64,000 bases of DNA from Minisyncoccota bacterium (GCA_031972855.1 DALYDY010000001.1:128048-192047); one strand, 5' to 3'; counted from the first letter of the stretch, positions 17,552-49,122 are shown. Translations and numbers: made by a program. Notes: generated from the sequence alone by a model not told the origin.

Positions 17552-17638
17552 CAAAAATAATTTAACGGAATCGCCTCTCCCTTCGGTCGAAACGCACTAA
17601 TTTTACATTCGTTACACTTATTAAAATTAGGCGCCTGC

Positions 17639-17661
17639 GGTTCGATTCCTACCGAGCGGAC
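17639..17661 (+). repeat. Inverted partial copy of the tRNA-Lys T-arm/acceptor 3' end (23 nt), convergent with tRNA-Lys across a palindromic terminator
   Basis: ggttcgattcctaccgagcggac is the exact reverse complement of 17716-17738 (gtccgctcggtaggaatcgaacc). Confidence 0.8.
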
Positions 17662-17707: not shown

Positions 17708-17715
17708 ATTTATTG

Positions 17716-17788
17716 TCCGCTCGGTAGGAATCGAACCTACGACCATCTCCTTAAAAGGGAGCTGCTCTACCAGCTGAGCTACGAGCGG
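17716..17788 (-). tRNA. tRNA-Lys (anticodon TTT); no encoded CCA
   Basis: Minus-strand cloverleaf: CCGCTCG acceptor, D arm GCTC-AGCTGGTA-GAGC, anticodon loop CTTTTAA, T arm GTAGG-TTCGATT-CCTAC, acceptor CGAGCGG + A. Confidence 0.85.
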
Positions 17789-23885: not shown

Positions 23886-24407
23886 ATGAATAAACTTATT
23901 AACGAAACAGGAGAAGTTTTTACTGAGCGTACTTATTGCATAAATGCATATTTACGCGATATTGAAAAAATTCCTGTACTTAATAAGGTAGAGGAATTAG
24001 GATTGGTTCAAAAAGCCAGAGAAGGAGATGAAATGGCAAGAATGGTTTTAATTGTATGTAATTTGAAATTAGCTTTTAGAATTGCAAAAAAATACTATTC
24101 TCCAAAAATATCTTTTCATGATTTATTTTGTGAATCAAACGAAGGATTAATAAAGGGGGTGGATAGGGTAATATCTAAGTGGGATTCTTCTCGTGGCTTT
24201 AGAATAACAGCTCTTGCTATTTATTCTATTTACGGTCAACTGGTTAATAATTTTGATTTTTTAAAAGATCAAATAAAGTTACCTTATTCTGTTGCTAAGA
24301 TAATTCGAGAAAGAAAAAAAGTTTTTAAAGAGTTGCAATCAAAAAATTGTTGTGATCCATCAGAACAAATGGTTCTTGAAAATTATCAGAGAAAGATATT
24401 TTTTTAG
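23886..24407 (+). CDS. RNA polymerase sigma-70 family factor, N-terminal part (regions 1.2-3); interrupted at a T7 run
   Basis: YLRDIEKIPVLNKVEELGLVQKAREGDEMARMVLIVCNLKLAFRIAKKY (regions 1.2/2.1-2.2), HDLFCESNEGLIKGVDR (2.3/2.4), region-3-like tail. Stop codon immediately after TTTTTTT (24399-24405). Confidence 0.7.
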   Translation: MNKLINETGEVFTERTYCINAYLRDIEKIPVLNKVEELGLVQKAREGDEMARMVLIVCNLKLAFRIAKKYYSPKISFHDLFCESNEGLIKGVDRVISKWDSSRGFRITALAIYSIYGQLVNNFDFLKDQIKLPYSVAKIIRERKKVFKELQSKNCCDPSEQMVLENYQRKIFF

Positions 24408-24418
24408 ATAGGAGTCTA

Positions 24419-24865
24419 TTGATGATTCAAGAAGGACTTGAATTTGTTTATGAAAACAACGTTTCATTTTTTAGTACTGAAGAATGTTCAAATTTATTAA
24501 TTCAAAAAGAGTTATTCATTGCTGATGAAGATTTTTCAGCAGATCATTTTGTAGAAAAAGAAGATTTGAAAACAGATACATTAAGATCTCTTAGTTTCTT
24601 AACAGAAAAAGAATTTATAGTTGTTAGTCTGTATTATGGAATTGAATCTGAGAAACTTTTTAAACTTGTTTCTGGTATTAATAAAAATATTGGAATTGAA
24701 ATAAAAAATAAGTTTCAAAATCCAGAACACGAAGGACTAACTCTTGAGGAAATTTCTGGAATCATTCCTTTTACAGTGGAGAGGATTAGGCAGATAAAAG
24801 AAAAAGGAGTAAGAAGACTTAGACAATCTAGGGTTTCTGGTGTTTTGAGAAAATATTTAGGATAG
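24419..24865 (+). CDS. Sigma-70 region 4 (C-terminal part of the same sigma factor, different reading frame)
   Basis: LRSLSFLTEKEFIVVSLYYGI...LTLEEISGIIPFTVERIRQIKEKGVRRLRQ is a region-4 HTH. The frame is reached by adding 1 nt to the T7 run. Confidence 0.65.
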   Translation: MMIQEGLEFVYENNVSFFSTEECSNLLIQKELFIADEDFSADHFVEKEDLKTDTLRSLSFLTEKEFIVVSLYYGIESEKLFKLVSGINKNIGIEIKNKFQNPEHEGLTLEEISGIIPFTVERIRQIKEKGVRRLRQSRVSGVLRKYLG

Positions 24866-25154
24866 TCCCGCAGAAATGCGGGATTTTTTTTGTACTCTAG
24901 TTATGTACGCGAGTAAAGTAGATTGCTCTCGGTAGAAATCTCGCTACACTAAAGGTACTGCGATTTAAACAGGTTGATTAAAATCTAATAAATCGGGAGC
25001 CTACGGTCGCGGGTGAGTTTCAATCTCACTTCGTTCAATAATGAAACTCCTTTCGATTCCTAACAAAAATAAAGTAGTTCACGGAATCGCCTCTCCCTTT
25101 GGTCGAAACGCACAATTTTTATAATCACTCCGTTCTTTAAAAATTGGCGCCTAC

Positions 25155-25201
25155 GGTTCGATTCCTACACGCGAGCAAAGCAGATTGCTCGCTCGAGAGC
25201 A
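25155..25201 (+). repeat. Inverted copy of the tRNA-Arg(GCG) T-arm/acceptor 3' end interrupted by a 25-nt hairpin insertion
   Basis: ggttcgattcctac + acgcgagcaaagcagattgctcgct + cgagagca; compare the tRNA 3' end GGTTCGATTCCTACCGAGAGCA on the opposite strand. Confidence 0.75.
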
Positions 25202-25202
25202 C

Positions 25203-25239
25203 AAAGAGAAAAGCCTCCCTATGGGAGGCTTTTCTCTTT
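25203..25239. terminator. Palindromic hairpin (bidirectional terminator) between the tRNA fragment and tRNA-Arg
   Basis: aaagagaaaagcctccc-tat-gggaggcttttctcttt. Confidence 0.65.
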
Positions 25240-25240
25240 G

Positions 25241-25312
25241 TGCTCTCGGTAGGAATCGAACCTACATCGCAACTTCCGCAAAGTTGCGTCCTATCCATTG
25301 AACGACGAGAGC
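25241..25312 (-). tRNA. tRNA-Arg (anticodon GCG as read; possibly ACG/ICG family), no encoded CCA
   Basis: Minus strand: GCTCTCG acceptor, D arm TCGT-TCAATGGATA-GGACG, anticodon stem CAACT / loop TTGCGGA, T arm GTAGG-TTCGATT-CCTAC, CGAGAGC + A. Confidence 0.75.
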
Positions 25313-25390
25313 AGATTGATAACATATATCAATAGTAAGTAATATACAGTAAAAAACCCTTTTTGAAAAGGGTTTTTAAATATTCTTTAT

Positions 25391-26968: not shown

Positions 26969-27204
26969 TATTTTGTTGCGGAAGAGGTGAGATTCGCCTT
27001 CGACTAAAAATATTGCCGTCGCATATATTTTTGTCTAGGCACCGGCTCGAAAAATTTTCTGCTGAAAATTTTATACTCCGCTGTTCTAAAGTCCATCAAG
27101 GCATTAAAATGGACACCTGTGGACGGCCCGGCTCAGTCTCTGACTTTGTCAGGCTTCGCGGTCTGCGCCTTTCGAATCCTCCCAACCTTACCGAAAACAA
27201 AATC

Positions 27205-27226
27205 ACCCGACACTTTTGTGTCGGGT
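27205..27226. terminator. Hairpin terminator downstream of tRNA-Ser (bidirectional)
   Basis: acccgacac-tttt-gtgtcgggt with flanking T/A runs. Confidence 0.6.
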
Positions 27227-27239
27227 TCATTTGTTTTTG

Positions 27240-27326
27240 CGGAGGCGGGGGGATTCGAACTCCCGGACCCCGTAAAGGGTCTCCTGTTTTCAAGACAGGT
27301 GCCTTCAACCACTCAGCCACACCTCC
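27240..27326 (-). tRNA. tRNA-Ser (anticodon TGA), type II with long variable arm; no encoded CCA
   Basis: Minus strand: GGAGGTG acceptor, D arm, anticodon stem CCTGT / loop CTTGAAA, variable arm AGACCCTTTACGGGGTCC, T arm GGGAG-TTCGAAT-CCCCC (one A-C mismatch), CGCCTCC + G. Confidence 0.8.
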
Positions 27327-31159: not shown

Positions 31160-31302
31160 CAAAATCAAAAACCTCATTCTGAAAGAATGAGGTTTTTGAT
31201 TTTTGAGGTAAATAGGGGATGAGAAAGACGGAGGCGCGAAGCCGGTTTTGTAAAAACCGTTGCCGAGTCGGGGTCGATAAATTTTAAAAAAATATTAGTG
31301 AC

Positions 31303-31325
31303 CGAGTCCTCTATCGCCCACAAAA
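31303..31325 (+). repeat. Direct repeat of the last 23 nt of tRNA-Val plus its trailer (cgagtcctctatcgcccacaaaa), 161 bp downstream of the tRNA
   Basis: Identical 23-mer at 31142-31164 and 31303-31325; each copy is followed by its own hairpin terminator. Confidence 0.8.
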
Positions 31326-31366
31326 ACAAAAACTCACTCTTCTGGAGTGAGTTTTTGTTTTAATAT

Positions 31367-35616: not shown

Positions 35617-35689
35617 GGGGATTATGGTGTAACGGTTAACACTGAGGTTTGTGGAACCTTCAATCTGGGTTCGATTCCCAGTAATCCCC
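35617..35689 (+). tRNA. tRNA-His (anticodon GTG) with encoded G(-1); no encoded CCA
   Basis: G(-1)-GGGATTA-TG-GTGT-AACGGTTA-ACAC-T-GAGGT-TTGTGGA-ACCTT-CAATC-TGGG-TTCGATT-CCCA-GTAATCCC-C. Confidence 0.85.
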
Positions 35690-37336
35690 CTTTTCAGGAG
35701 TTAATATAACGGAGTCAGGTAATTTGGTCTGGCGTATAGATACGTTCCGACCCCGACCCCTGACAGGACTTAATATAACTGAGTCATCCGTTGTAATAAT
35801 TCCTTTCTCAAAAGCTCGATCCTTTACCGGATCGGGCTTTTGCGTTGTGTTCCAAATAAGCGCGCCTGTTGCCTCAAGTCCTAACACGATTGGAGATTTA
35901 ATTGCCTCGACGATTAGCTTGTCCTCGGCTTTGAATTGGTCCCAGAAAAGCCCAAGGTACAGGCGTTTCAAATCGTCCGGTGCTTTCTGGTAGGTCTTGC
36001 CGATGTTCCGCATAAGGGCTAGTACGTCTTGGATTACATCAATCTTCAGGTTCTTTGTTTGGTCCAGTTTGTGCATTTCGTCCTCGACTCCATCAATCTG
36101 TTCTCGGTAGCGGACCTTTATTTTGGTGAACGCCGCATCGTCGATGATTCCGTTGATCAGCTTTTCTTCGGCGATCTCAAGTTTGCGCTCGAAGTTTATT
36201 TTTGATGTCATGAACTGTTTCTTTTGATTCCCGACATCGGATTTCTTTTCTTCGTAGATGTCCCGCATTTTCTTCACCACTTTATCTATGAAGTCGTCAG
36301 AGAATTGCAGTCCTTTGAATTTCTCTATGATCTGATTTTCTAAATCAAACACCTCGACGTATTTGTCGGTACATTTCTTTTGGTCATTGGACCGATTGCA
36401 GTGGTAGTACGCTTTCTTTTTCAAAGGGTGATATTCGGCCGTGTATCGTTGGCCGCACTTGTTACAAAATACAAATCCGCGCAGTAGAAAGTTATGCTTG
36501 TGCCGTCTGCATGCGTAGCGATTATTTTCCAGCATGACTCTCTGGCATTTATCAAAAAGCTCTTTGGTGATGATTGCCTCATGCTTGCCGATATCATTCA
36601 TCCCTCGCCACTCCATTCCGCCATAATAAAAAGGGCACTTGATTGTGCGAAACATTTTACTCATCGCCACTCGTTTACCCACGGTGCTGACCAGTCCTTT
36701 CTTGTAGAGCAGATCCCGAATCTCAATCAGGGAATAATCGCCGGTGCTATAGAGTTTGAATCCCTCGGCGATGAGTGGTGCGCGGATCGGGTCTGTCGTG
36801 ATGATTCTTTTCTTTTCGTCGTCGGGAGTTCCCGAGTTGAAGTATCCCATCGGTGCTTTCGTCGGCCACCATCCGTCCTTGTATTTTTGCTCCATGCTCT
36901 TGAGCGTCTTTCGGGAAGTGATCTGCGATTGCAGTTGGTTCACGCCGGCAATTATCAAGTCCATGAAGTTGCCCTCGGGCGTGTCCTCGAGTCCCGGTTG
37001 CGATACCGATATCAGTTCGACGTTGTGCTTTCGCAGGAGTGCCTTGATCGTAAGGTGGTCCCCGGCATTACGGGCGAGTCGGTCCGTATCTTGGACGAAG
37101 ATCGCGCCGATGCTCTTATCCTCTTGGATACGGATCAACATGTCTTGAAGTCCGGGGCGATTCATGTTGGTCGCGCTCTTGCCCGGGTCCTTGTAGACAC
37201 CGTCGTCGGCAAGCTTGAAGGTTTTCATATCTTCAATGCCGCGCTCGCAGAGGCGCAGTTGGGTTTTTAATGAGTGCCGTTCGTCACCGGCTTGTTCATC
37301 GGTGGAAACTCGGCAGTAAATGAGAGCTTTATTCAT
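35660..37336 (-). CDS. Large serine recombinase (resolvase/invertase catalytic domain + recombinase domain + zinc ribbon)
   Basis: N-terminal YCRVSTDEQ catalytic-Ser motif, resolvase-domain conserved Arg/Asp residues, central recombinase domain, C-terminal Cys cluster (CNKCGQ...HCNRS). Start taken at MNKALIYCRVS. The open frame continues antisense through the tRNA-His 3' end before the first stop. Confidence 0.8.
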   Translation of the reverse strand: MNKALIYCRVSTDEQAGDERHSLKTQLRLCERGIEDMKTFKLADDGVYKDPGKSATNMNRPGLQDMLIRIQEDKSIGAIFVQDTDRLARNAGDHLTIKALLRKHNVELISVSQPGLEDTPEGNFMDLIIAGVNQLQSQITSRKTLKSMEQKYKDGWWPTKAPMGYFNSGTPDDEKKRIITTDPIRAPLIAEGFKLYSTGDYSLIEIRDLLYKKGLVSTVGKRVAMSKMFRTIKCPFYYGGMEWRGMNDIGKHEAIITKELFDKCQRVMLENNRYACRRHKHNFLLRGFVFCNKCGQRYTAEYHPLKKKAYYHCNRSNDQKKCTDKYVEVFDLENQIIEKFKGLQFSDDFIDKVVKKMRDIYEEKKSDVGNQKKQFMTSKINFERKLEIAEEKLINGIIDDAAFTKIKVRYREQIDGVEDEMHKLDQTKNLKIDVIQDVLALMRNIGKTYQKAPDDLKRLYLGLFWDQFKAEDKLIVEAIKSPIVLGLEATGALIWNTTQKPDPVKDRAFEKGIITTDDSVILSPVRGRGRNVSIRQTKLPDSVILTPEKGDYWESNPD

Positions 37337-37509
37337 GGTAATTGTAATAGTTAGCTGATAAGGGCAATGCGACGACATTATGCTAGGAACACGGGATATA
37401 GCAATGGTGGGTTTTGTTTTTGTGTCGTATATGTGGTCATTTTTATCGTTTTTCACTACTGGCTTAACTGACGTTATTTTGAAATGGTCCTTATTTCATG
37501 GGCTATTAA

Positions 37510-37869
37510 CTACAGAAATCCGTCATGTCTGTTCCGAGGGTCGATCCAGTCGCCCGGGTACTCTCTGATGATTTCATTGAGTTTCTGTCGCAACTGCGCC
37601 ATTTCAACAGAAAACTGTTCAAGCCGTTCTTTCCATCGGTCAAACTGCGGTCGCTTTTCACGGAGTACTGTCTGTTCTTTCGTAAGGCGTTCGAATGCTT
37701 TCCACATCAGCTTTGTTGCATATGCTCGGTTGAGGTTGTATCCCTTTTCTTTGAGGTAATAGCAAAGCGCACGAGCGCTCATGCTCGTATCTTTGGATAC
37801 GATGTCATAGATGATATCGATATGGTGGTTTGTTTGTTCTGATGAGTATTTCATGGATTGTGAAAACAA
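37510..37869 (-). CDS. Hypothetical small HTH/coiled-coil protein (possible transposase-OrfA-like or recombination accessory factor)
   Basis: 119 aa, GC-rich codon usage like the island; basic helical N-terminus. Weak similarity only. Confidence 0.3.
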   Translation of the reverse strand: MFSQSMKYSSEQTNHHIDIIYDIVSKDTSMSARALCYYLKEKGYNLNRAYATKLMWKAFERLTKEQTVLREKRPQFDRWKERLEQFSVEMAQLRQKLNEIIREYPGDWIDPRNRHDGFL

Positions 37870-38030
37870 AATTCATTCTGGCTTATTCGCTGTTTGGTGG
37901 CTTGTGATGGATTGTCATTCGGTGTTTTCTTAGGGTTTTCAGTATTTTTTGGCACGCGCGTTAGGTTTCTTTTTTTATTTCCTTTATTTTCTTTCTTACC
38001 CCCTCGAAAGTGTTCGGTATGCTGAACACC

Positions 38031-38504
38031 TTATAGCGGTTTAACCCTGAATTTATCAGTAAGATTCTTGATTCCGTCTTGTAAATTTGAACGGTCTTGC
38101 TGTTCATTCTGTCGAATGTTCTGTTCTGTAGGTTGAATCCCTTGTTCGATACACCGAAATCCCTGTTCAGCTTGCCGAACCGAGGCTTGATAAATCCAGA
38201 AGTAATTCACACCTGTTTTATTTTTCGGGAGCTTAATAAGGAACCCTTTCTCGGCGAGTGACTTTCTGGTTTCACTGATCTTGCCACGGGACCAGTTTGG
38301 CAAGCAGTGATCTTTGATGTCTTGAAGTGATAAGTCCTCGATGATACCAAACCGCTCCTCGTCGCGTTTATCCCATCGTGCATGGGTCACATACATGTCG
38401 AAAAGCCGATACTCCTGATCGGTCATCACTTTTTTGTATTCGATAGCCATATATCTATATAGCTTTAGGTAGCCTACGTGTTTTTTCTTCATGTTCATTT
38501 TCAT
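38031..38504 (-). CDS. Hypothetical protein (157 aa)
   Basis: ORF with island-like composition. Confidence 0.35.
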   Translation of the reverse strand: MKMNMKKKHVGYLKLYRYMAIEYKKVMTDQEYRLFDMYVTHARWDKRDEERFGIIEDLSLQDIKDHCLPNWSRGKISETRKSLAEKGFLIKLPKNKTGVNYFWIYQASVRQAEQGFRCIEQGIQPTEQNIRQNEQQDRSNLQDGIKNLTDKFRVKPL

Positions 38505-38618
38505 GCTCGATTTGCATCAAGAGGATTTGGGCGAGACGTTCGACAAAGAAATCCAAGTCTTTTGGATTCAAGGGGACCTGTACAGGGACCGGTTTGTTGT
38601 CGAGCGTCTGGTCCATAA

Positions 38619-38876
38619 TTAATTTACCTCGTAGAGGCGGGTCTTTAACGCTTTGATCTGGTCAAAGTAAGCGCGCGGTTCGACCGACAGCTGACGCTTT
38701 TGGAATTCTGAAACAATGTCTTCAAGTTCCGGAGTCCGGGCGAATATGAATTGCGCTCGCCTCGGTACACTCTTGTCGACATCTTCGAGTGGCACGAACA
38801 GCGAAATTGCCGCCGCGCACGCGAGGTCTGAAGTTTGGTACATAGATTTTTGATTAATAATAATTTTCATAGTCAT
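38619..38876 (-). CDS. Hypothetical protein (85 aa)
   Basis: ORF only. Confidence 0.3.
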   Translation of the reverse strand: MTMKIIINQKSMYQTSDLACAAAISLFVPLEDVDKSVPRRAQFIFARTPELEDIVSEFQKRQLSVEPRAYFDQIKALKTRLYEVN

Positions 38877-39354
38877 TTTTCAAAGAGCTAGCTGAAAACA
38901 AAAAAGAGGACTTGCAACGCAAATCCAATATTGATGGATATGCATCACAAGTCCTCCGGGGTATTCGGCCAGACTTCGAACATTAGTTGTGAAAAGACTA
39001 CTCTCAAATCGTAGCGCGGACCGCTAATGAAGCGCAACTCCTGACAGTGTGGACAAAGTAGTATGCCTAGTGAACCACTTAAAGATTTTATCTTTACGTC
39101 ATAACAACTTTTTGGAATCGAATTGGCCGTATGAGGAGAGCAATAGAACACTTGTTTTTAAAAAGGCAAACAGTGGAGAGATTCCCTGTAGGCTTAGTCT
39201 GGTATCTATAACACCGTGGGGATAACCGATAAAGGTTGTAGATATGCGACAAGTAAAATCTAAAATAACCCTTATTTAAAAGGGCTATTTTTGGAATAGG
39301 GGTCTCTTGTAAATAACTATTTGCAAGTAAAGGCACTTTCTTGTATACTTATGT

Positions 39355-40821
39355 TTGCAAGTGAAAAAGCCTATGAAAACAGAGCAAAAACAAAAAATCT
39401 TTGAATTTATACAGGACCAGATCGCAAATGCTGACTTTAGAATCAAGGCATACGTATTTGATGAGTCCGGGAAGAAGCGTCTCGGGCGTAACTGCTTTGT
39501 GAAGCTTGATATGCATGTACAGAACTTCCTACAAGGAAAATCTCCTATTCGATGGATAACCATGTATGGCTTACGTGGTGCCGGCAAAACTACCTTACTT
39601 GCTCAGTTGTATGAGCAGACGAAAATTGAGAGCAAAAGAAAATTATTTTTATCAGTGGATCAGGCGGTTGGAATTTTTGGAGTTAGTCTCAAAGATATTC
39701 TTGATGTCTACGAAGAATCGCTTGGTACATCCTTCGAACGTCTCACGGAACCAGTCTTCCTTTTTCTTGATGAGGTTCAATACGATGAGAAGTGGGCTCT
39801 ATTACTCAAAACGATTTATGATCGCAGTAGCAAGGTTTTTATTATTGCGACAGGTTCGTCTGCGCTTTCGCTACAAGCGAGTCCTGATGTTGCACGACGC
39901 GCAATTTTTGAAAAACTTTTCCCGATGAGCTTCACGGAATATATAAAGATTAAAAATCAAAAGACAGAAATTCGGGGACTTGCCAAGGAACTACGCGAGG
40001 CGATTTTTAATTCCAAAGATGCTAAAGAGGTTCACACACGTCTTAAGGGTTTGGAAGTAAAAGCTCGGCAGTATTGGTTAGATATAGAACGGAAAGAGAT
40101 TGATTCATATATGCAATATGGGACACTGCCTTTTATGATCGCTCTGAATAATGAGGCAATGGTCTACGATCAAATCAAGAAGACCCTTGAGCGTGTTATC
40201 AGTATTGATATTCCACATATAAATCAATTTTCAGCAGAGACTATATCCAAGATACCAATGGTGCTTTATGCACTTGCAGAAACGGACCAGTTGAGCTTGA
40301 GCAGTCTCGCTGATAAAGGCGAGCTTGATATTAGCCGTCCAGTGCTTACAGCCGTTCTCGAAACTCTGGAAAGAACAGAAACGATTTGGCGTATTTACCC
40401 TCATGGGTCGCATGTAACACAAACAACTCGTCAGCCATCAAAATATCTTTTTACGAGCCCAGCGTTTCGGTCCATGTATTTTAATTTTATAGGAAACACA
40501 AGGACCCACGATACCTATAAAGGGAAAATACTTGAAGATACTGTCGGTCTTTATCTTAATCGCATATTCTCGGGCAAGCCCGACACTTCCGTAACGTACG
40601 ACAGTGCCGCCGGCGGAGCTGATTTCATTATTCGTCAAAGTAAAGACATGATTGTATTGGAAGTCGGGTACGGCGATAAATCGTTTAGGCAAGTTGTAAC
40701 TACAATGGCAAAGGTCGGAGTAAATGCTCGATACGGCATAGTTGTGTCGCAAAGTCCGCTTGCCTTAGATGAAGAGAAAAATGCAGTAAGTATCCCACTC
40801 TCTTATTTTTTGTTGATGTAA
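39355..40821 (+). CDS. AAA+ superfamily ATPase (COG1373/DUF4143-type)
   Basis: Walker A GLRGAGKTTLLAQL, Walker B FLDEVQY, C-terminal DUF4143-like region; 488 aa. Confidence 0.65.
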   Translation: MQVKKPMKTEQKQKIFEFIQDQIANADFRIKAYVFDESGKKRLGRNCFVKLDMHVQNFLQGKSPIRWITMYGLRGAGKTTLLAQLYEQTKIESKRKLFLSVDQAVGIFGVSLKDILDVYEESLGTSFERLTEPVFLFLDEVQYDEKWALLLKTIYDRSSKVFIIATGSSALSLQASPDVARRAIFEKLFPMSFTEYIKIKNQKTEIRGLAKELREAIFNSKDAKEVHTRLKGLEVKARQYWLDIERKEIDSYMQYGTLPFMIALNNEAMVYDQIKKTLERVISIDIPHINQFSAETISKIPMVLYALAETDQLSLSSLADKGELDISRPVLTAVLETLERTETIWRIYPHGSHVTQTTRQPSKYLFTSPAFRSMYFNFIGNTRTHDTYKGKILEDTVGLYLNRIFSGKPDTSVTYDSAAGGADFIIRQSKDMIVLEVGYGDKSFRQVVTTMAKVGVNARYGIVVSQSPLALDEEKNAVSIPLSYFLLM

Positions 40822-40845
40822 AGATCCAGAATAATTAAAATTACT

Positions 40846-41034
40846 ATGAAAATCGACAACCAAGAAAACAAAAAAGAACTCTACATCAAATGCGTAAAAT
40901 GCGGTGATGAGATTTTTTGGAATACGCACAAACAACTAACTTACTGCACATGTAAGGCTATTTATGTTGATGGCTGCGAGGGTTATATCCGGGTCGGCGG
41001 AAATAAAGAGGATCACGTTGAGATTCAAAAATAG
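40846..41034 (+). CDS. Small zinc-ribbon protein
   Basis: CVKCGDE...CTCKAIYVDGCEG Cys pattern; 62 aa. Confidence 0.4.
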   Translation: MKIDNQENKKELYIKCVKCGDEIFWNTHKQLTYCTCKAIYVDGCEGYIRVGGNKEDHVEIQK

Positions 41035-41039
41035 ATCAC

Positions 41040-41372
41040 ATGAATAATCAAAAGATAGAAATTATAAGACAACCAGTATTTAAACCTTTTGAAAGTAGAA
41101 TGGTTCTTTGCGCTGATCCTGTTATCAAAATAAGCGATAAAGAAAAAATAGCCCGCTTTGCTATTTCTATGGTTGATACATCTGTTTTACAGTTGGGAGA
41201 TAATTTTGAAAAATTAAACAAAATGATTAGAGATACTCTCCAGGACGGTGTTCAAGAAAATTTTGAAATAGATGGTGTTTACTACTTTGAATACACAGGT
41301 AGTCATTTCCAACAATTAGATGGGAAACCAGATTGGGCTAATGATTTCTATAGACAAGGTATAAATATTTAA
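41040..41372 (+). CDS. Hypothetical protein (110 aa)
   Basis: ORF only; 6-bp intergenic gaps on both sides (operonic). Confidence 0.35.
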   Translation: MNNQKIEIIRQPVFKPFESRMVLCADPVIKISDKEKIARFAISMVDTSVLQLGDNFEKLNKMIRDTLQDGVQENFEIDGVYYFEYTGSHFQQLDGKPDWANDFYRQGINI

Positions 41373-41377
41373 AATTT

Positions 41378-42847
41378 ATGGGATGGATAATTTTCATTGG
41401 AATAGTTATTTACTTCATTTACAGCTCTTCAAAAAGCACAGGTACTTCAGCGTCTCCATCTAAGCCTCACTACTCGAAGCCTTATAGCAAGCCCGCAGTT
41501 GTTGTAAATAAAAAACTAAATGAGGATCAGTTACTTGTTGAAAAAATAACGCTTAGCGAAGAGCAGCAGACCCTGTTCGATAAAATCGAACATAGCACCG
41601 ATCACTTCTTCATTACAGGTAAGGCGGGGACCGGTAAGTCAGTGTTGTTGCAGTATTTGAAATTCAAATCAAAGAAACGCTTGGTTGTTGGTGCTTTTAC
41701 CGGAGTCGCTGCACTGAACGTAGGAGGCCAGACCTTGAATTCGTTATTCGAATTGCCGACGGGTTTCATAGATTTAAGTCGCTTAACAGTAAGCGGTCGA
41801 GTTTCCACTTTGATGAGGCACGTTGATACTGTCGTCATCGATGAGATATCTATGGTCCGGGCTGATATGATGGGTGCCATTGATGTAATTCTTCGACAGG
41901 CGCGCAAGAATGACGTTCCATTCGGCGGAGTTCAAATGGTCATGTTTGGGGACCTTTACCAATTACCTCCCGTTGTGGCCGACGAAGCACTGCATCAGTA
42001 TTTTGCCCATAATCATGGTGGTCCTTATTTTTTTAATGCTGATGTCTGGCAGAGAGCAACACTTCACACTTTCGAACTGAGTCATATTTTCCGTCAGCAG
42101 GATGATGAGGAATTCAAAGCTATTCTTAATTCAGTACGAAAAAATCAAATAGAAGATACTGTCCTTTCATCCTTGAATCAACGGCACGTTGACCAGGTAC
42201 CCACTGACGGAGTCGTTACGCTTGCAACTCGCAACGCTGTGGTTGATCGAATAAACAATGATCGCCTGGCTCGACTTGGCGGTGAGTTGTATGAATATCG
42301 CGCAGATGTTTCTGGGAATTTAGAACGATCTGCGTTTCCAGCTGAAGAATTCTTACGACTCAAAAAGGGTGCTCAGGTGATGCTCCTCAAAAATGATCCA
42401 GAGAAGCGATGGGTAAATGGTACGGTCGGTGTGGTTGAGTCGTTGTCATCGTCTGAAATAAAGGTCCGCATTAATGGCGAAATTATTTATTCGATCCCGC
42501 GAGCAACCTGGACCAAAATTCGCTATTTCTACGATACTGAAACAAGAAAAATCGAAGAGGAAGTTTTGAGCTCATTTACTCAATTCCCACTTCGCTTGGC
42601 ATGGGCGTTCACGATTCACAAATCCCAAGGTAAAACATACAATGCTGTCGTCGTAAATATGGAGGGAGGTGCTTTTGCTCACGGACAAACGTATGTTGCG
42701 CTCAGTCGTTGCACTTCTCTTAACGGACTATATCTGACCCAGCCTATCGAAAGAGATGATATAAAAGTTGATCCGGTCGTAGTCAGCTTTATGGAACAAA
42801 TTACATTAGAGACTATTAATCCTGATGTACAAACACAAATTATATGA
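41378..42847 (+). CDS. PIF1/RecD-family (SF1B) DNA helicase
   Basis: Walker A GKAGTGKSVLL, VVIDEISMV (Walker B), GDLYQLPPV (Pif1 motif III), C-terminal SF1 helicase motifs (AFTIHKSQG...YVALSR); N-terminal TM segment. Confidence 0.8.
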   Translation: MGWIIFIGIVIYFIYSSSKSTGTSASPSKPHYSKPYSKPAVVVNKKLNEDQLLVEKITLSEEQQTLFDKIEHSTDHFFITGKAGTGKSVLLQYLKFKSKKRLVVGAFTGVAALNVGGQTLNSLFELPTGFIDLSRLTVSGRVSTLMRHVDTVVIDEISMVRADMMGAIDVILRQARKNDVPFGGVQMVMFGDLYQLPPVVADEALHQYFAHNHGGPYFFNADVWQRATLHTFELSHIFRQQDDEEFKAILNSVRKNQIEDTVLSSLNQRHVDQVPTDGVVTLATRNAVVDRINNDRLARLGGELYEYRADVSGNLERSAFPAEEFLRLKKGAQVMLLKNDPEKRWVNGTVGVVESLSSSEIKVRINGEIIYSIPRATWTKIRYFYDTETRKIEEEVLSSFTQFPLRLAWAFTIHKSQGKTYNAVVVNMEGGAFAHGQTYVALSRCTSLNGLYLTQPIERDDIKVDPVVVSFMEQITLETINPDVQTQII

Positions 42848-44226
42848 AAAATAACATCTACCCAATTATCGGCATGAGTCCAGGCAATAGCTACTTCAAG
42901 GATGAAGAGATTAAATATCTTCTCAAGACCGCAGTAGACCGCTATGGAAAGGTTGCTGTGATGATTGCTGACATCCCTGCAATCTCGACATATGTCGCAC
43001 TCGGCTATCCTGAAAATCGTGCGCGGCGCGATAAGGCCCTGCCACAAGGAAATCTTTTGAAAAATAGAACTGAGCGGGCCGTCGTCCAACTCGGATACAC
43101 AAAGGATCAGGTAAGGATTATTGATTGGGAAAATGAAATAGAACCGAATGAAAATTACAAAAAGTCGTATAAGTATATTCGGCATCTTTATGAATCAAAC
43201 AAGCAATTTGAACATGATGCCGATGAGACAACTAAGGGTGTCGTCACTGGTTCAAAGAAAGAAATTAAAGATATAGATGTTGCGGTAAAAACTGCGGTCC
43301 ACTACTTGCTTTCAGAATTTGCTTTTCTTGATTTTGCACCCGGATTTTTAGGAGCTGAAAAAATCACCTATATTTATCACAAAAATTGGCCTGTGTATGA
43401 AAACTATATTGCAGGAAAGTATGACGGGAAATCAAAAGACCATGTCGATTTCCTACTCATGGAAAATCCATGGGAGACGTATCGTTCAGTGTGGGGTGAT
43501 GAGGATAATGAGAATGGAAGTTATACATCCGCCCTTGATCGTGTAGAAAAGACAAAGACGCTCCGTGTAGCTTTCACAAACTATCCACCCGCGTTATTTT
43601 ATAATCACGAAACCGATACTTTCTCGGGTATTTTCTATGAGATTATTACTGCAATAGCAGAAAAGCATGGTTGGCAGATTAAGTGGAGCGAAGAGACAGG
43701 ATATGGTGTTGTAATTGATGGATTGGACCATAATCGCTTTGATCTGTTTGGGAGCACTGTTTGGCCGACACCTGAGCGAAAAGAGAAAGCGTCTTTTTCA
43801 AAATCTATGTATACAAGCGAGGCATATCCATGGACGTTTCCAGGATTTGAGTATGAAAAGCTTAAAGATAGTCCTGATCTAAGGGTTGTGGTGAAAGAAA
43901 ACGATATCTCTCATTCGATTGCAATGGCTGATTTTCCAAAAGCACGACTGGTATTTGTACCGCAGCTTTCGGACCCTCAAGAATTGCTGCAATTTGTAGC
44001 TGACGGAAAAGGGGACGTGACGTTTGCAGAAATTAACCTTGTGGAAATTTTTATAAAAGCGAAACAAAAGAAATTGGTACAGGCAACAAGTAGTCCTATT
44101 CGCGTATATGAAAATACTTTTGTTTTCAAAAAAGACGATCCCTCATTAAAAAATCTTATTGATGAAGAAATCGTAGCCATGGTTGCTAGTGGTAAAATGG
44201 AAAAGTTGATAGAAAAATATCTTTAA
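42844..44226 (+). CDS. Two-domain protein: N-terminal cyclodipeptide synthase (CDPS, tRNA-dependent)-like domain fused to C-terminal family-3 solute-binding-protein (SBP_bac_3)-like domain
   Basis: N-terminal ~235 aa align motif-by-motif with YvmC/AlbC-type CDPSs: IIGMSPGNSYFKDEEI vs VGISPFNSRFSEDYI, VAVMIADIPAISTYVALG vs VSVLLAGHEAANLLEALG, AVHYLLSEFAFLDFAPGFLGAEKITYIYH vs [29 protein letters not shown] (catalytic Tyr/Glu positions conserved). C-terminal ~225 aa match amino-acid-binding SBP family 3: LRVAFTNYPPALFY...GIFYEIITAIAEKHGWQIKW...RFDLFGSTVWPTPERKEKASFSKSMY. ATGA start/stop overlap with the helicase gene. Confidence 0.65.
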   Translation: MKNNIYPIIGMSPGNSYFKDEEIKYLLKTAVDRYGKVAVMIADIPAISTYVALGYPENRARRDKALPQGNLLKNRTERAVVQLGYTKDQVRIIDWENEIEPNENYKKSYKYIRHLYESNKQFEHDADETTKGVVTGSKKEIKDIDVAVKTAVHYLLSEFAFLDFAPGFLGAEKITYIYHKNWPVYENYIAGKYDGKSKDHVDFLLMENPWETYRSVWGDEDNENGSYTSALDRVEKTKTLRVAFTNYPPALFYNHETDTFSGIFYEIITAIAEKHGWQIKWSEETGYGVVIDGLDHNRFDLFGSTVWPTPERKEKASFSKSMYTSEAYPWTFPGFEYEKLKDSPDLRVVVKENDISHSIAMADFPKARLVFVPQLSDPQELLQFVADGKGDVTFAEINLVEIFIKAKQKKLVQATSSPIRVYENTFVFKKDDPSLKNLIDEEIVAMVASGKMEKLIEKYL

Positions 44227-44240
44227 CACATAATTAATTC

Positions 44241-44768
44241 ATGACACTACTTATTTTCCAAATTCTCTCAAGCGTTTTTGGTTTTGCAAACAAACTCTTG
44301 CTGTATCTTGGGAAACGAACGGGTTGGATTTTGGGATTTCTGGCGGGAGTATTTTTTGTCGTTTATTTTTTCCTAATCGGATTTACTGTATATGCATTCG
44401 TACAAATAGGATTTAGTCTTTTGATGCTGTATGGATATTTTTCTCATACAGGAATCTCTAAAAATGCAAGAATTTTTGCCACCGTAATTTTATCTTTAAT
44501 CGCTATTATTATTTGCTTTATAACGTTTAACGGCAAACTGACTTTACTTGAAGCAACTTCAGCTTTATTGGCCTCATGGGGCACATACTATCTTGCATCA
44601 AAGAATAATATAAAAGGGTGGGGCATGTACCTTATTGCTCATTTTATCCTTATTTATCTAACCATCATAAAACAACAATATATTTTTGCCTTGTTTCAAG
44701 GGTTGTCAGCAGTCGTTTCGATCTTAGGAATTATTAGATCAGGAGATACTAAAACGAAGGGTTTCTAA
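44241..44768 (+). CDS. Small multi-TM membrane protein (possible PnuC-like transporter; uncertain)
   Basis: 175 aa, 5-6 TM helices, directly downstream of the CDPS-SBP fusion gene. Confidence 0.3.
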   Translation: MTLLIFQILSSVFGFANKLLLYLGKRTGWILGFLAGVFFVVYFFLIGFTVYAFVQIGFSLLMLYGYFSHTGISKNARIFATVILSLIAIIICFITFNGKLTLLEATSALLASWGTYYLASKNNIKGWGMYLIAHFILIYLTIIKQQYIFALFQGLSAVVSILGIIRSGDTKTKGF

Positions 44769-44785
44769 AAGTTTAACTATTAAAA

Positions 44786-44821
44786 AAACCTCATGTTGAA
44801 TTTATACAACATGAGGTTTAA
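44786..44821. terminator. Bidirectional hairpin terminator
   Basis: aaacctcatgttg-aatttataca-acatgaggttt. Confidence 0.7.
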
Positions 44822-44850
44822 CTTTTGATGAAGAGGATTAAACTGTCATC

Positions 44851-45423
44851 TCAGTTCATTTGAGCTTTAATACCGAAAACTTCGCCACCATACGCAAACA
44901 CCTGTTCATCTAACACCTTGATCAAGCTGGAAAGTACTTTGTCTTTCTTTTTTGAATGGGCAAAGATGATGTTTTCAACCGAGATGACAATCTCACCTTT
45001 TTTGAGCTTATTGACACTTTTTTCAAAACTGCCATCGCTATAAGGTATAGATTGGGTAATGATAGTATCAGCGGTTGCTTGTTCAATTTTAATTACGCAA
45101 CTGCCACTCATTCCACTCATCCTGCCTTCAATGCTGTAACGGGCATTTACTATGCGGTTGCCTACACTATCTCTTTGATATGCATCAGGGTCTTTCCATT
45201 CAATGTTGGTTCCAACTGTAGGGAAGTATTTTTTCGCAGTATCGACCATTAAGGCAAACACTGAATCCAATACTTCATTTTTAACAATTTTTGCTTCCAC
45301 CTTTGGAACCTCCTTTGCTACGGGGACCGGAGCGAGAGTGTCATTTCTACTTTCTGGCTCATTAGAGCAAGATGTCATACATAAAGCGATAAACGCAATA
45401 GAAAGATTAAGTAACTTTTTCAT
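44851..45423 (-). CDS. Lipoprotein (hypothetical)
   Basis: Signal peptide with lipobox LCMTSC. Confidence 0.5.
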   Translation of the reverse strand: MKKLLNLSIAFIALCMTSCSNEPESRNDTLAPVPVAKEVPKVEAKIVKNEVLDSVFALMVDTAKKYFPTVGTNIEWKDPDAYQRDSVGNRIVNARYSIEGRMSGMSGSCVIKIEQATADTIITQSIPYSDGSFEKSVNKLKKGEIVISVENIIFAHSKKKDKVLSSLIKVLDEQVFAYGGEVFGIKAQMN

Positions 45424-45533
45424 TTGTTATTTGGTTTTGATTGTTTGAAAAGAACGAATTTCACTGTCAACCCACAACGTTTTGTTATGAACTGAATAAT
45501 GAAGGGAGCTACTTTATTCACTCCCTTTGAGGT

Positions 45534-45944
45534 TTAACCTCCATATGAATTTGAAGAAAGTACCGTCAGGTCTTTATCTCCACCACTCAATTCCCAATCT
45601 CTATCCATTCTCCAACAGGATAATGTTACTTCATCCAAACGATGGATTTGAAGTAACTTGATAGCAGGAAAGTGAATCGCAATGTGAGAAAACCTTGATA
45701 CTTCTGCAAGCTCTATTGTTACACCCAGCGTATCAGCATTCTTTTCGATTTTGGTAATCCCTTTATACCAATCCCATACATAGACAACAGGAATGAAATC
45801 AGGGTCACTGGTTTCTACTGTCATATCCATATCGAGATTGAGCTGATTGATGTCAGTAGGGTTGATGTTATATTTTCTAACACCCAAATTTCTACCTAAT
45901 CGTGTAAGTGTTGCTACACCAAGATGGTTCAATGAAGTTTTCAT
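45534..45944 (-). CDS. Hypothetical protein (136 aa)
   Basis: ORF only. Confidence 0.35.
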   Translation of the reverse strand: MKTSLNHLGVATLTRLGRNLGVRKYNINPTDINQLNLDMDMTVETSDPDFIPVVYVWDWYKGITKIEKNADTLGVTIELAEVSRFSHIAIHFPAIKLLQIHRLDEVTLSCWRMDRDWELSGGDKDLTVLSSNSYGG

Positions 45945-46083
45945 TTTTGAAAGAATTTTACCGCAACGTGCGATGCCGAGATGATTTTTTAGCGTTGTGC
46001 CATTCTGTGAGTTTGTCCATTCTCACTATATCTGCCAATTAAGGAAGCAGAGGAACCTATGCCTGTAGTATAGCACATATACA

Positions 46084-46112
46084 TTGACAAGTCAAGCACA
46101 ATATGCTATGAT
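46084..46112 (+). promoter_or_regulatory. Consensus sigma70-type promoter upstream of the DGR target gene
   Basis: ttgaca-17 nt-tatgat, ~75 nt upstream of the start codon. Confidence 0.5.
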
Positions 46113-46189
46113 TTAACCAGAATACAGTAAACCTCTCGCCGTCTTCGGTATAACGAGTAGAGGCTTCGTTCATTTAAATCTTAATTGTC

Positions 46190-46828
46190 ATGGCAAAATT
46201 TAATGTCACAGGCGACCAACACTTCGGCACCACAGGACAGGTGCTCGAAATTCAACGCCAAATCCGTCTTAAGGGCGGAAGTCCAATCGATCCCGAGCTC
46301 GTTGCTCTTGCACTTCAGGACATCATCGAAGGTAAGTTCAACCGCAGTAAGAAAGAGAATGCAATTCTCAAACTACTGTCGAAAGGCGAATCCATCATCA
46401 TTGATGCATGTGATGGGACCGAAACATTGGCAACTGCCAAAGAAACATTCAAATCTGGTATAGATGGAGACTTCAAGAACTGGGGTACCAACAAGCCGGG
46501 CGTTTCTACTGAAGACACCGCAGTACAGGTTCACGAAATGGTGAAGGACGCTACCTTTGCACAAATGTTCGGCTCCCTCGGGACCGATCTGGACAAGCTG
46601 TGTCTGACACAAGCCCAGATAAAGAACTTTTGCAAAAAGCATCCCAACTGGTTACGCAAAGACGGATATGCGACTTTCTTCCTGTTCAAGGTTGAAGATC
46701 AATTCTTCGTTGCTTTCGTGTACGTGTACTCTGACGGCTTGAACGTCTTCGTGTTCCGGTTCGGGTACGACTTCGTTTGGTTTGCCGAGTGCTCCCTTCG
46801 TCTGGTGGTTCCGCAACTGACCGCTTAG
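46190..46828 (+). CDS. DGR target (variable) protein; C-terminal variable region encoded by the VR
   Basis: The last ~40 codons coincide with the VR (46700-46820). The VR differs from the TR only at TR adenines, mostly in AAC codons. Confidence 0.8.
46700..46820 (+). repeat. DGR variable repeat (VR), 121 bp
   Basis: 121-bp alignment with the TR at 47131-47251: 19 mismatches, all at positions where the TR has A (AA->TT x5, AA->TG, A->T x5, A->G, A->C x2). Confidence 0.9.
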
Positions 46829-47130
46829 TACCTTGTTCTAATGACGCTTATTTTCTTAATCCCTTTGATTCTTCGGAATTGAAGGGATTTTTTTATTTTT
46901 GTATAATGATCGGGCAGTGGTGCAATATGTCGCGGTTACGGCTGCGGGATCACGATTGCTCAAAATCATCATCGAGAATTTTGCCGGCTACGGCTTTCAA
47001 AAGAGTGAAGATTTTTTTGAAATAAAAAAACTTTTCAGTTGGTGCGGTGTGCTTGCGGACTTCTAGGTCCCGAATAAAATACAGCACGGTCCCTGATGGA
47101 AACATGCTTGGATCGGCGGTGGTATAGACG

Positions 47131-47251
47131 GCACAGCGCACAATTCTTCGTTGCTAACGTGAACGTGAACTCTGACGGCTTGAACGTCAACGTGAACCGG
47201 TTCGAGAACGACAACGTTTGGAATGCCGAGAACTCCCATCGTCTGGTGGTT
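47131..47251 (+). repeat. DGR template repeat (TR), 121 bp
   Basis: Non-coding copy of the VR containing AAC-rich sequence (aacgtgaacgtgaac...); sits between the target gene and the RT. Confidence 0.9.
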
Positions 47252-47281
47252 CCGAAAATGATAGTTTTCTCCTCTCTGATT

Positions 47282-47626
47282 TTATTGTCCGAGAGGAGTT
47301 TTCTTTTCAAGCCCCTTTCTCCAACCGCCGAGCATTTTGCCTATCTCATCCAACTGTTCGGAGAGTATTGCATATTTGTCGTTCGGCAGGCATTTGTTCT
47401 CCCACGCCAACTGCAAAAAGAATTTCACCCCGTCGAGCTTTGATATTGAAATGGTGATACGGTTGATCTTCTGATCTCCCGACAGATAGAAGGAAACAAA
47501 AATGTTTTCCAACAGTTCTAAAAAATAGCAGTCTATCTTGCCACCGAGATTGTGGCGGTAGGTCTTGGGAAAATCGGCCAGTAACTTAAACCAGAGTGAG
47601 TACGATGCTTTTGCCTTTATGAGCAC
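47282..47626 (-). CDS. Accessory variability determinant (Avd)-like four-helix-bundle protein, encoded antisense to the TR and RT
   Basis: 114 aa; LWFKLLADFPKTYRHNLGGKIDCYFLELLENI... and C-terminal EIGKMLGGWRKGLEKK resemble the Avd family (compare the bAvd C-terminus VGRILGSWIARVNRKG). Confidence 0.6.
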   Translation of the reverse strand: MLIKAKASYSLWFKLLADFPKTYRHNLGGKIDCYFLELLENIFVSFYLSGDQKINRITISISKLDGVKFFLQLAWENKCLPNDKYAILSEQLDEIGKMLGGWRKGLEKKTPLGQ

Positions 47627-47680
47627 TGAAGGTGCTCGGGGGGGGTAGATTAATTGACATAGTAATTTTAATTAATATTT

Positions 47681-48697: not shown

Positions 48698-48888
48698 ACG
48701 TGGCCGTTGAAATTCTGGAGGGTGACAAACCCTCGGATGCCGTTTGAAGAGCTCACACAGGGCAAAATACGCGCGAATTATGCCAACTGTAATTCTTTCT
48801 TCTTGTCGGAAATCAGCCTTAGTTTCTCTCGTAAAATTTGCATATACCCCTCGTCGAGAAGTATAGTTAGAAGGTCATTCTGACTCTG

Positions 48889-48932
48889 CCCCAAAAGAGA
48901 AAAAGCCCATAAGGGCTTTTTCTCTTTTGGGG
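48889..48932. terminator. Long perfect palindrome (hairpin terminator) at the right end of the GC-rich island
   Basis: ccccaaaagagaaaaagccc-ataa-gggctttttctcttttgggg. Confidence 0.6.
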
Positions 48933-48974
48933 GATTAAGCAAGTGAACTACTTCACTTGCGTCTGGGAATCGAA
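48929..48974 (-). repeat. tRNA-His 3'-end-like fragment (inverted relative to tRNA-His) interrupted by a 25-nt hairpin insertion
   Basis: Plus strand gggggatta + agcaagtgaactacttcacttgcgt + ctgggaatcgaa. The flanks equal the reverse complement of tRNA-His 3' end GGGGGATTACTGGGAATCGAA (21/21). The insertion is a homologue of the 25-nt insertion at 25169-25193. Confidence 0.7.
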
Positions 48975-49122
48975 AAGCTTTTGCTTATTTATGAAAATCT
49001 TTGATTTGAATAAATGCAAAAGGTGTACTGCTCCTGTAAGGAGAGATTCCTATTAATCTAAAAATTATTTATATTGACTTATAAAAAAATAAATAGTATA
49101 TTACGATAAATAATTTTAATTT

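Follow-up and report, generated by a model that had tools for sequence, protein, structure and literature searches.

What is a 25-nt hairpin doing inside inverted copies of tRNA gene ends? The question is raised by the tRNA-Arg(GCG) locus in a 64,000-nt stretch of DNA from a Minisyncoccota bacterium (GCA_031972855.1, DALYDY010000001.1:128048-192047), the whole of which is called the window here. A preliminary description of this sequence noticed the hairpin, labeled HP below, among tRNA 3′-end fragments, and proposed that it is a small mobile element or the att core of repeatedly integrating elements. We find that the hairpin is real, structurally constrained and widespread, and that it belongs to a larger composite unit. 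In our reading, to which we give an even chance, HP is an optional module of miniature, gene-less, non-autonomous cassettes that insert at the T-loops of tRNA and tmRNA genes.

Hairpin copies in the window

HP divides an inverted copy of the tRNA-Arg(GCG) 3′ end (25155-25202, plus strand) between tRNA positions 65 and 66, and an inverted copy of the tRNA-His 3′ end (48974-48929, minus strand) is divided likewise between positions 65 and 66; the T part and acceptor part of the His copy, when joined, are identical to the 3′ end in the tRNA-His gene at 35618-35690. A partial third copy lies at 24907-24931. All three had been reported in the preliminary description and their sequences are found where it placed them; the hairpin itself stands, although its stem measures 8-9 bp rather than the 7 bp first given. 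A degenerate HP pattern made from these copies matches the window three times, against 0.06 matches expected from shuffles. Since the sequence of the Arg locus is identical in the NCBI metagenome-assembled genome (MAG) GCA_031972175.1 and in an independent Logan assembly, the locus is not an assembly artefact.

Hairpin copies in metagenomes

Metagenome contigs from JGI and ENA were scanned with the degenerate 25-mer, without a tRNA-sequence anchor. The pattern matches at least 120 contigs, in the same tRNA-end context; a search for further 25-mers beside T-arm motifs had been suggested earlier as a check. HP counts here and in later sections are for the copies among the matches listed (133 in all), and the pattern had left several positions free to vary independently. 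In nearly all copies inspected (n = 128) HP lies between a copy of the T-loop and T-stem 3′ strand and a copy of the acceptor 3′ strand of the local tRNA; HP and the acceptor copy are followed by a terminator and then by the real tRNA gene on the opposite strand. A convergent tRNA gene is found within 200 nt of HP in 100 of the 133 copies, in agreement with the earlier suggestion that the hairpin travels with tRNA 3′ ends. These tRNAs represent 38 anticodons, and one HP copy faces a tmRNA gene. Of the 73 units in which the HP boundary could be scored, 69 have it at 65/66 or 64/65.

Stem pair 5/22 is of Watson-Crick type in 129 of 133 copies, where 68 would be expected under independence, pair 8/19 in 128 (103 expected) and pair 9/18 in 132 (58 expected). 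Among 33 distinct HP sequences, 95% of cells are paired and five of the nine stem pairs show double changes, values attained in none of 500 shuffles. The structure-preserving covariation first suspected from the window copies is thus well beyond what independence or shuffling would give. HP variants outside the search pattern also retain the stem and the GCAG loop.

Anatomy of the composite unit

The cluster of tRNA-end fragments seen earlier at the Arg locus is real, but its members are parts of a bigger composite whose scaffold, direct repeat and terminator had been missed. This unit spans ~160-250 bp, with HP as one optional module, and on the strand opposite the tRNA has the following order.

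Copy 1, a direct repeat: tRNA 3′ end now displaced, reaching from the trailer as far as T-loop nt 56
Scaffold: structured, 60-130 nt
Copy 2, inverted: the tRNA 3′ end from nt 54, with HP, if any, at 65/66
Terminator
Copy 3: the working 3′ end of the tRNA gene

At least three scaffold families can be distinguished, here called UNIT, unit2 (with a UUACA-loop hairpin) and the GGTCAC type, and HP is present with at least three families. That it is optional can be seen from same-scaffold units behind the same tRNA that lack it and have a contiguous tRNA end (the window Lys unit; L003, where L numbers denote fetched loci). To find copy 1, the last 19 nt of each tRNA were compared, as antisense, with the sequence upstream of HP; 60 of 100 units have a direct repeat 75-150 nt upstream that agrees at 15 or more of the 19 positions, and in 23 the match is perfect. 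The inner end of this repeat is always in the T-loop, immediately after ...TCG, and the outer end is variable, giving repeats of 19-39 nt that reach into the terminator. It is at the T-loop (nt 54-57), not at the hairpin, that the repeat junctions sit, and the hairpin can no longer be regarded as an att core. Nor is there evidence that the 25-mer moves by itself; its constant place, 12 nt into the inverted arm, fits inheritance within the larger unit. Of the first proposal, then, the association of the hairpin with a site of repeated integration survives, as a module that travels with tRNA 3′ ends.

The UNIT scaffold, a block of 83 nt (GGAATCGCCTCTCC...GGTTCGATTCC), occurs again in the window at 17567-17649. 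There it points at tRNA-Lys, and the inverted tRNA-Lys end that comes after it runs on unbroken, lacking the hairpin. When one genome was scanned for each species, 33 UNIT loci came up, ~25 of them in MAGs of the candidate phyla radiation (CPR)/Patescibacteria, where UNIT is convergent with a tRNA ~40-100 nt away with a terminator between. Partner tRNAs include Arg-GCG (eight), Lys-UUU (seven), Arg-UCU, Trp, Gln, Gly and Ile. Compensatory (double) changes occur in 10 of the 23 pairs predicted by RNAalifold. The flanks of UNIT are tRNA-derived in two ways, either on the right as a sense copy of the neighboring 3′ end, or on the left as an antisense copy forming a direct repeat with the real gene. 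Units that have the GGAATCnCCTCTCC start and tRNA-end repeats were also seen in a Clostridia MAG (L031) and an Elusimicrobia MAG (L010), so the family is not confined to Patescibacteria. Conservation of HP and the scaffolds with compensatory change implies some structural constraint, as RNA or as single-stranded DNA.

The association is not limited to the tRNAs that led to it. The fetched contigs contain 91 more tRNAs that the search patterns had not picked out; about a quarter of these carry an inverted or direct copy, while shuffled controls carry none.

Two side observations concern the tRNA sequences and their copies. The inverted T-loop copy often reads TTCTCnTCC rather than TTCGAnTCC, a systematic GA to TC change at nt 57-58 found behind different tRNAs (examples are L077, L084, L101, L133, L142, L152 and window 31216-31227). 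The tRNA genes of the window and of loci L003-L033 have no encoded CCA, and their trailers nearly always start CA(A/G).

Units in the window

Units lie behind five of the seven window tRNAs, namely Lys, Arg-GCG, Ser, Val and His. The Arg locus contains the following features.

24907-24931, plus strand: HP1, the oldest hairpin copy, its 3′ arm fused to the direct repeat through a shared TGCTC
24924-24940, plus strand: copy 1, direct repeat of the tRNA-Arg 3′ end as antisense, tgctctcggtagaaatc, 16/17 identical to 25241-25257
24941-25062, plus strand: scaffold of an older cassette, E_A, ending in a T-loop copy, tttcgattcctaa (25050-25062)
25063-25082, plus strand: hairpin remnant of E_A, caaaaataaagtagttcac, truncated by the newest cassette, E_B; aligns to the 5′ half of the His hairpin
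25083-25165, plus strand: UNIT scaffold of E_B, GGAATCGCCTCTCC...GGTTCGATTCC, of the family conserved across CPR phyla
25155-25168, plus strand: T part of copy 2, ggttcgattcctac, comprising GG, T-loop and T-stem 3′ strand
25169-25193, plus strand: HP in copy 2, acgcgagcaaagcagattgctcgct, between positions 65 and 66
25194-25202, plus strand: acceptor part of copy 2, cgagagcac, nt 66-73 (acceptor 3′ strand with discriminator) plus a further base, without a difference from the real tRNA 3′ end
25203-25238, either strand: bidirectional intrinsic terminator common to tRNA-Arg and the unit
25240-25312, minus strand: tRNA-Arg(GCG), the real gene (ARAGORN; Rfam tRNA, 61 bits), the last ~23 nt being copy 3

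Three units stand in succession here, with truncation progressing along the array; from distal to proximal they are HP1 with the direct repeat (24907-24940), E_A (24941-25082) and E_B (25083-25238). The pile-up from repeated insertion envisaged in the preliminary description is found in this form. The fusion of HP1 to the direct repeat probably reflects deletion of an acceptor copy and terminator. A repeat search finds a perfect palindrome centred on the terminator, with 26-nt arms (25194-25219 and 25223-25248) that are 100% complementary, and beyond it the 14 nt at 25155-25168 are 100% complementary to 25249-25262. When copy 2, the terminator and copy 3 are folded as a single strand (25153-25264), they form a 40-bp hairpin with HP as a side branch (-56.5 kcal/mol, z = -15.4).

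The units at the other four tRNAs are made up as follows.

17567-17661, plus strand: tRNA-Lys unit, UNIT scaffold and contiguous inverted tRNA-Lys 3′ end, taccgagcggac, with neither HP nor direct repeat
26976-27238, plus strand: two decayed units behind tRNA-Ser(TGA), with distal direct repeat at 26976-26996 and scaffold/T-loop copies at 27084-27094 and 27170-27183
31161-31325, minus strand: tRNA-Val unit, 161-bp period
31161-31203, minus strand: terminator of the Val unit
31204-31227, minus strand: degenerate inverted copy of the Val unit
31228-31302, minus strand: GGTCAC-type scaffold of the Val unit
31303-31325, minus strand: 23-nt perfect direct repeat of the Val unit
31326-31362: second, different terminator at the Val locus, read as the displaced original
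35618-35690, plus strand: tRNA-His(GTG), the real gene (ARAGORN, Rfam), now parted from its unit by an island
48893-48928: terminator of the His unit, resembling that of the Arg unit in sequence
48929-49050, minus strand: tRNA-His unit (RNA fold z = -5.6), with unit2 scaffold at 49050-48975 and homologous units in L029 and L004
48974-48963, minus strand: T part of the His unit, ttcgattcccag
48962-48938, minus strand: HP of the His unit
48937-48929, minus strand: acceptor part of the His unit, taatccccc

The hairpin fold of the Lys unit with its tRNA gene (17715-17788, minus strand) has z = -15.4. This tRNA-Lys(UUU) appears to begin with a C1-G72 pair.

Evidence for insertion and turnover

After the real tRNA at the Val locus come a new terminator, the degenerate inverted copy, the scaffold, the perfect 23-nt repeat and a different terminator. 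An insertion in the T-loop region that displaced the old 3′ end would be expected to give this arrangement. A before-and-after pair is provided by two other loci. L020 has UNIT, terminator and tRNA-Lys; L029 has a near-identical UNIT and an extra unit (direct repeat, unit2 scaffold, HP and new terminator) that lies between a remnant of the old terminator and tRNA-Lys. Arrays are polar, with an intact unit beside the tRNA and truncated ones distal (window Arg, L005, L011, L029), and tandem accretion with decayed distal elements at one site is seen at these loci and at L057. In L028, a syntenic relative, no unit stands behind tRNA-Val or tRNA-His. For an empty-site comparison at the Arg locus the protein database contains no close relative of the window genome, the next match being at 40% identity.

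The three copies could be aligned in 54 units. Against the tRNA, 163 changes are private to copy 1 and 118 to copy 2, and 13 are common to both. With private changes so far in excess of shared ones, the arms must decay independently, being neither kept mutually complementary nor conserved as guides; this fits relics of insertion and weighs against both a terminal acceptor-like RNA helix and a guide-RNA role.

There are hints that the working tRNA 3′ end is itself borne by the element. In L016a the T-stem is fully paired when formed with the displaced copy, but includes a G.U pair when formed with the current 3′ end. Terminators track the type of cassette and not the tRNA, as in the similar terminators of the window Arg and His units. 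The T-stem of tRNA-Ser(TGA) (27239-27326, minus strand) has an A.C mismatch (GGGAG/CCCCC), and the distal repeat at this locus agrees with the tRNA-Ser allele of L028 and not with the resident gene, an indication that the 3′ end was replaced by a heterologous one.

At L057 (7558-9240) two near-identical HP units flank 1.3 kb with two metabolic-type open reading frames (ORFs) behind tRNA-Glu. The acceptor arm has diverged identically in both units, and therefore comes with the unit instead of being copied anew on insertion.

Proposed mechanism

We propose that cassettes enter the T-loop through site-specific recombination, in the manner known for tRNA-targeting integrases. Each would bring a replacement tRNA 3′ end and a new terminator, pushing the old 3′ end outward. 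The cassettes would be non-autonomous, like cis-mobilizable elements (CIMEs) or miniature inverted-repeat transposable elements (MITEs), and mobilised in trans. The weakest step concerns the site on the cassette: the long hairpin of copy 2, terminator and copy 3 may serve as a folded att site, in which HP would be an extrahelical branch marking one arm. Such a folded single-strand att site with HP as its asymmetric branch, drawn by analogy with systems discussed below, seems to us doubtful. So does a broader conception, offered tentatively, of an integron-like cassette system in CPR and some other phyla that would use the T-loop of essentially any tRNA or tmRNA as its site, with cassettes recombining as folded single strands, a palindromic att made from a tRNA-end copy, HP as the strand-marking branch and a recombinase encoded elsewhere in the genome.

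Several results weigh against insertion of mobile cassettes. Among 150 ORFs within 2.5 kb of units there was no recombinase, transposase or reverse transcriptase, and none of the Phage_integrase, Resolvase, DDE and RVT families; the genes neighboring units are housekeeping ones. No autonomous, gene-carrying version was found save L057, the only unit seen with protein-coding cargo (its 1.3 kb being metabolic), and no large islands bounded by unit repeats occur in the fetched loci. Neither HP nor a T-loop-anchored HP pattern has any match in 2.9 million viral contigs (IMG/VR). Neither an excision product nor an empty/filled polymorphism within a single population was observed. One constant framework bears arms for dozens of tRNAs, the origin of which is not accounted for. 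The quality of the direct repeat and that of the inverted copy are not positively correlated, contrary to simple ageing, and in the UNIT family direct and inverted copies are almost either/or. Finally, scaffold covariation is not expected of a purely double-stranded att arm.

Alternative explanations

That covariation, in both the scaffold and HP helices, is of the kind found in RNA, and it invites the explanation that units are structured small-RNA genes transcribed toward the tRNA and ending at the shared terminator, the tRNA-derived arms being by-products of gene conversion with the tRNA next door. The hairpin and scaffold would be functional RNA parts, e.g. one that mimics the tRNA end or a hairpin to which a protein binds. 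In agreement with this, an intrinsic terminator on the strand of the unit closes it, orthologous tRNAs in different CPR phyla (e.g. Arg-GCG, Lys-UUU) have conserved scaffolds, and HP is retained in L057 while the flanking acceptor copy decays. We nevertheless think it unlikely. Rfam 15 gives only tRNA and tmRNA matches, the sub-threshold ones being palindrome artefacts, and no consistent promoter is seen. The 5′ and 3′ arms do not co-vary (13 shared against 281 private changes), an acceptor-like terminal helix is not maintained, and the closing helix between T-loop copies is broken in the TTCTC subfamily (e.g. the window Val unit). Several unrelated scaffold families have the same arms, and the truncated arrays and presence/absence between relatives resemble turnover by insertion rather than a conserved gene. 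This explanation is compatible with cassette insertion, since a mobile cassette may also encode an RNA.

Units of one scaffold family at the same tRNA differ cleanly in having or lacking the 25 nt (window Arg and L003), with neither target duplication nor loss of flanking bases; this and the occurrence of HP with at least three scaffold families recall the first proposal, that the hairpin is itself a tiny mobile element. It would resemble the REP (repetitive extragenic palindromic) and PATE (palindrome-associated transposable element) types and would insert structure-specifically at the T-stem/acceptor junction in single-stranded or cruciform DNA. However, HP was not seen off the tRNA-end context among the matches listed, barring decayed or contig-end cases, and was never seen inside a real tRNA or copy 1. 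The constant distance to the scaffold junction accounts for its position without targeting, and chimeras of HP with different scaffolds can arise by recombination within tandem arrays, or by deletion between their T-loop repeats (L029, L004). With no Y1/HUH transposase among the 150 nearby ORFs either, we consider self-mobility of the hairpin quite unlikely.

No dedicated machinery at all would be needed if the unit were a product of template switching at the T-arm and terminator palindromes, of the tandem-inversion-duplication (TID) type. Template switching at quasi-palindromes (TID and quasipalindrome mutagenesis) yields direct-inverted-direct copies, and this order, with turn-round points at the T-loop and the terminator loop, fits the units, as do arms that are perfectly complementary through the terminator. 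It leaves unexplained the conserved scaffolds and HP common to different tRNAs and phyla, the new terminators of cassette type, and near-identical units at different places (L057). Because scaffold and HP are homologous across loci, template switching explains the homogenisation of arms at most, and as the whole account it is very improbable.

The units might instead encode a guide RNA, like a bridge RNA, omega-RNA or homing CRISPR RNA (crRNA), whose split arms would program a recombinase or nuclease encoded elsewhere. The combination of a constant framework and variable segments matching the target beside it could be so interpreted, as could a hairpin flanked by two guide-like segments. There is, however, no effector gene next to any of ~150 units and no omega-RNA or bridge-like match in Rfam; arms decay freely (at ~10-14% of sites) while the hairpin persists, and there are units that lack the hairpin and units that have a single arm. 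We give this explanation scant probability.

Chance similarity and ordinary decaying tRNA pseudogenes, for which the small copy number within the window is the only point in favor, are effectively ruled out, the first by the three window matches against 0.06 expected, the at least 120 loci sharing a context and the covariation across 33 sequences, the second because the copies start in the T-loop (nt 54-56) and never contain the tRNA body with its D and anticodon arms, ARAGORN and Rfam calling no tRNA in them.

Other candidates were rejected more simply. The copies have the genomic trailer CA[A/G] and not CCA, which excludes a primer-binding site or priming of a retroelement by mature tRNA. 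A tmRNA, a permuted tRNA and a tRNA with an intron were all rejected for the unit strand, which does not keep the T-stem, has the neighbor's acceptor identity and is negative with ARAGORN and Rfam; in addition, the group I introns of Patescibacteria tRNAs lie at position 35/36 and are much larger (PMC13011429). A XerCD/dif-like hairpin was rejected as well, since the compensatory changes are perfect and argue for base pairing. We know of no resemblance of HP to dif arms.

Comparison with known systems

The nearest precedent for cassettes inserting at tRNA T-loops is the concept of CIMEs and tandem accretion (PMC5704250). As in tRNA-integrating islands and CIMEs, the insert is bounded by a direct repeat of the stretch between tRNA T-loop and 3′ end, and an intact tRNA is restored; its own terminator stays with the displaced 3′ fragment, repeated insertion gives arrays, and no recombination genes lie inside. 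Unlike CIMEs, the units are only ~160-250 bp and non-coding, and they are found behind a large share of tRNA genes of every specificity instead of at one site. They contain the att segment once more in inverted form, as well as the conserved hairpin of 25 nt and scaffolds that covary. Neither an integrase nor a parent element with one was found for them among the 150 ORFs within 2.5 kb, the fetched loci and the viral contigs, and no cognate integrase was identified nearby.

Folded single-stranded recombination sites are exemplified by integron attC and CTX-phage attP. In common with these, units have an imperfect palindrome beside the insertion point that can fold to a long hairpin mimicking the duplex target, an extrahelical feature on one arm only, and polar arrays with the newest member beside the fixed site. 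They differ in having no R″ (RYYYAAC) or R′ (GTTRRRY) core sites and no IntI or Xer site, the palindrome arms being copies of the local tRNA end (TTCGAnTCC onward). No tyrosine recombinase adjoins any array, and the fixed site is a tRNA gene where integrons have attI with IntI. Unlike integron cassettes, the units normally lack an ORF; what they display is folding potential, from which single-strand recombination would be an extrapolation.

MITEs and REP hairpin repeats are, like the units, small, non-coding, abundant, structured and non-autonomous. The units, by contrast, appear to be confined to tRNA and tmRNA 3′ flanks, and their hairpin, which among the matches listed occurs only in the tRNA-end context, seems not to be dispersed through the genome. 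Their repeats are target copies of 19-39 nt that vary in length and run into the terminator, as opposed to the short fixed target-site duplications of MITEs. The 150 neighboring ORFs include no member of the Y1_Tnp family. The IS110 bridge RNA, TnpB omega-RNA and homing crRNA of type V-K CRISPR-associated transposons share with the units a constant RNA-like framework with short target-identical segments; the units differ in having no effector gene, unconserved arms, and sense and antisense copies of the same target.

Serine recombinase island and other window features

The His unit lies at the edge of an island, a position that the preliminary description had pointed out. The link is incidental. 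The island is a later, separate event that landed with the tRNA-His 3′ end on one side and the His unit's terminator on the other, which is why the unit now stands at its boundary. Its main features are these.

35691-48888: 13.2-kb island unrelated to the units, CCCC at both junctions, GC 40-49% against ~30% in the flanks
35660-37456, minus strand: large serine recombinase
42844-44226: cyclodipeptide synthase fused to a solute-binding domain
~46700-46812: variable repeat (VR), at the 3′ end of ORF 46190-46828
~47141-47253: template repeat (TR)
47282-47626, minus strand: bAvd
47681-48697: reverse transcriptase

The last four make up a complete diversity-generating retroelement (46190-48697), in which all core TR/VR differences are at TR adenines. 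An AAA_14/DUF4143 ATPase and a PIF1 helicase are also encoded in the island. The motif cagga(g/c)ttaatataac(g/t)gagtca occurs twice at 35695-35790, inside the left end beside the recombinase gene, and may be a binding site for the recombinase or a directionality factor. The large serine recombinase was considered as mobiliser of the units and rejected, the island being separate, with its own CCCC junctions at the tRNA-His 3′ end, and other units having no such gene. Elsewhere in the window, a sigma-70-like gene is present as two adjacent ORFs (23886-24407 and 24419-24865), a split also found in independent assemblies; only the second ORF has a Sigma70_r4 match, and a weak one.

Implications

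Literature searches found no published description of such units. Patescibacteria have tiny genomes and are thought to carry little selfish DNA. If the units are mobile, they would be a very abundant class of non-coding element, apparently overlooked until now, that remodels the 3′ end and terminator of a large share of the tRNA genes in this group. They would account for "orphan" tRNA fragments and long palindromes in CPR assemblies, possibly also for contig breaks, and would provide landing sites for other elements, the window island sitting at just such a junction of unit terminator and tRNA end. Mobility would also indicate a recombination activity directed at the universally conserved T-loop. 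The hairpin and scaffolds are good candidates for new structured nucleic-acid motifs.

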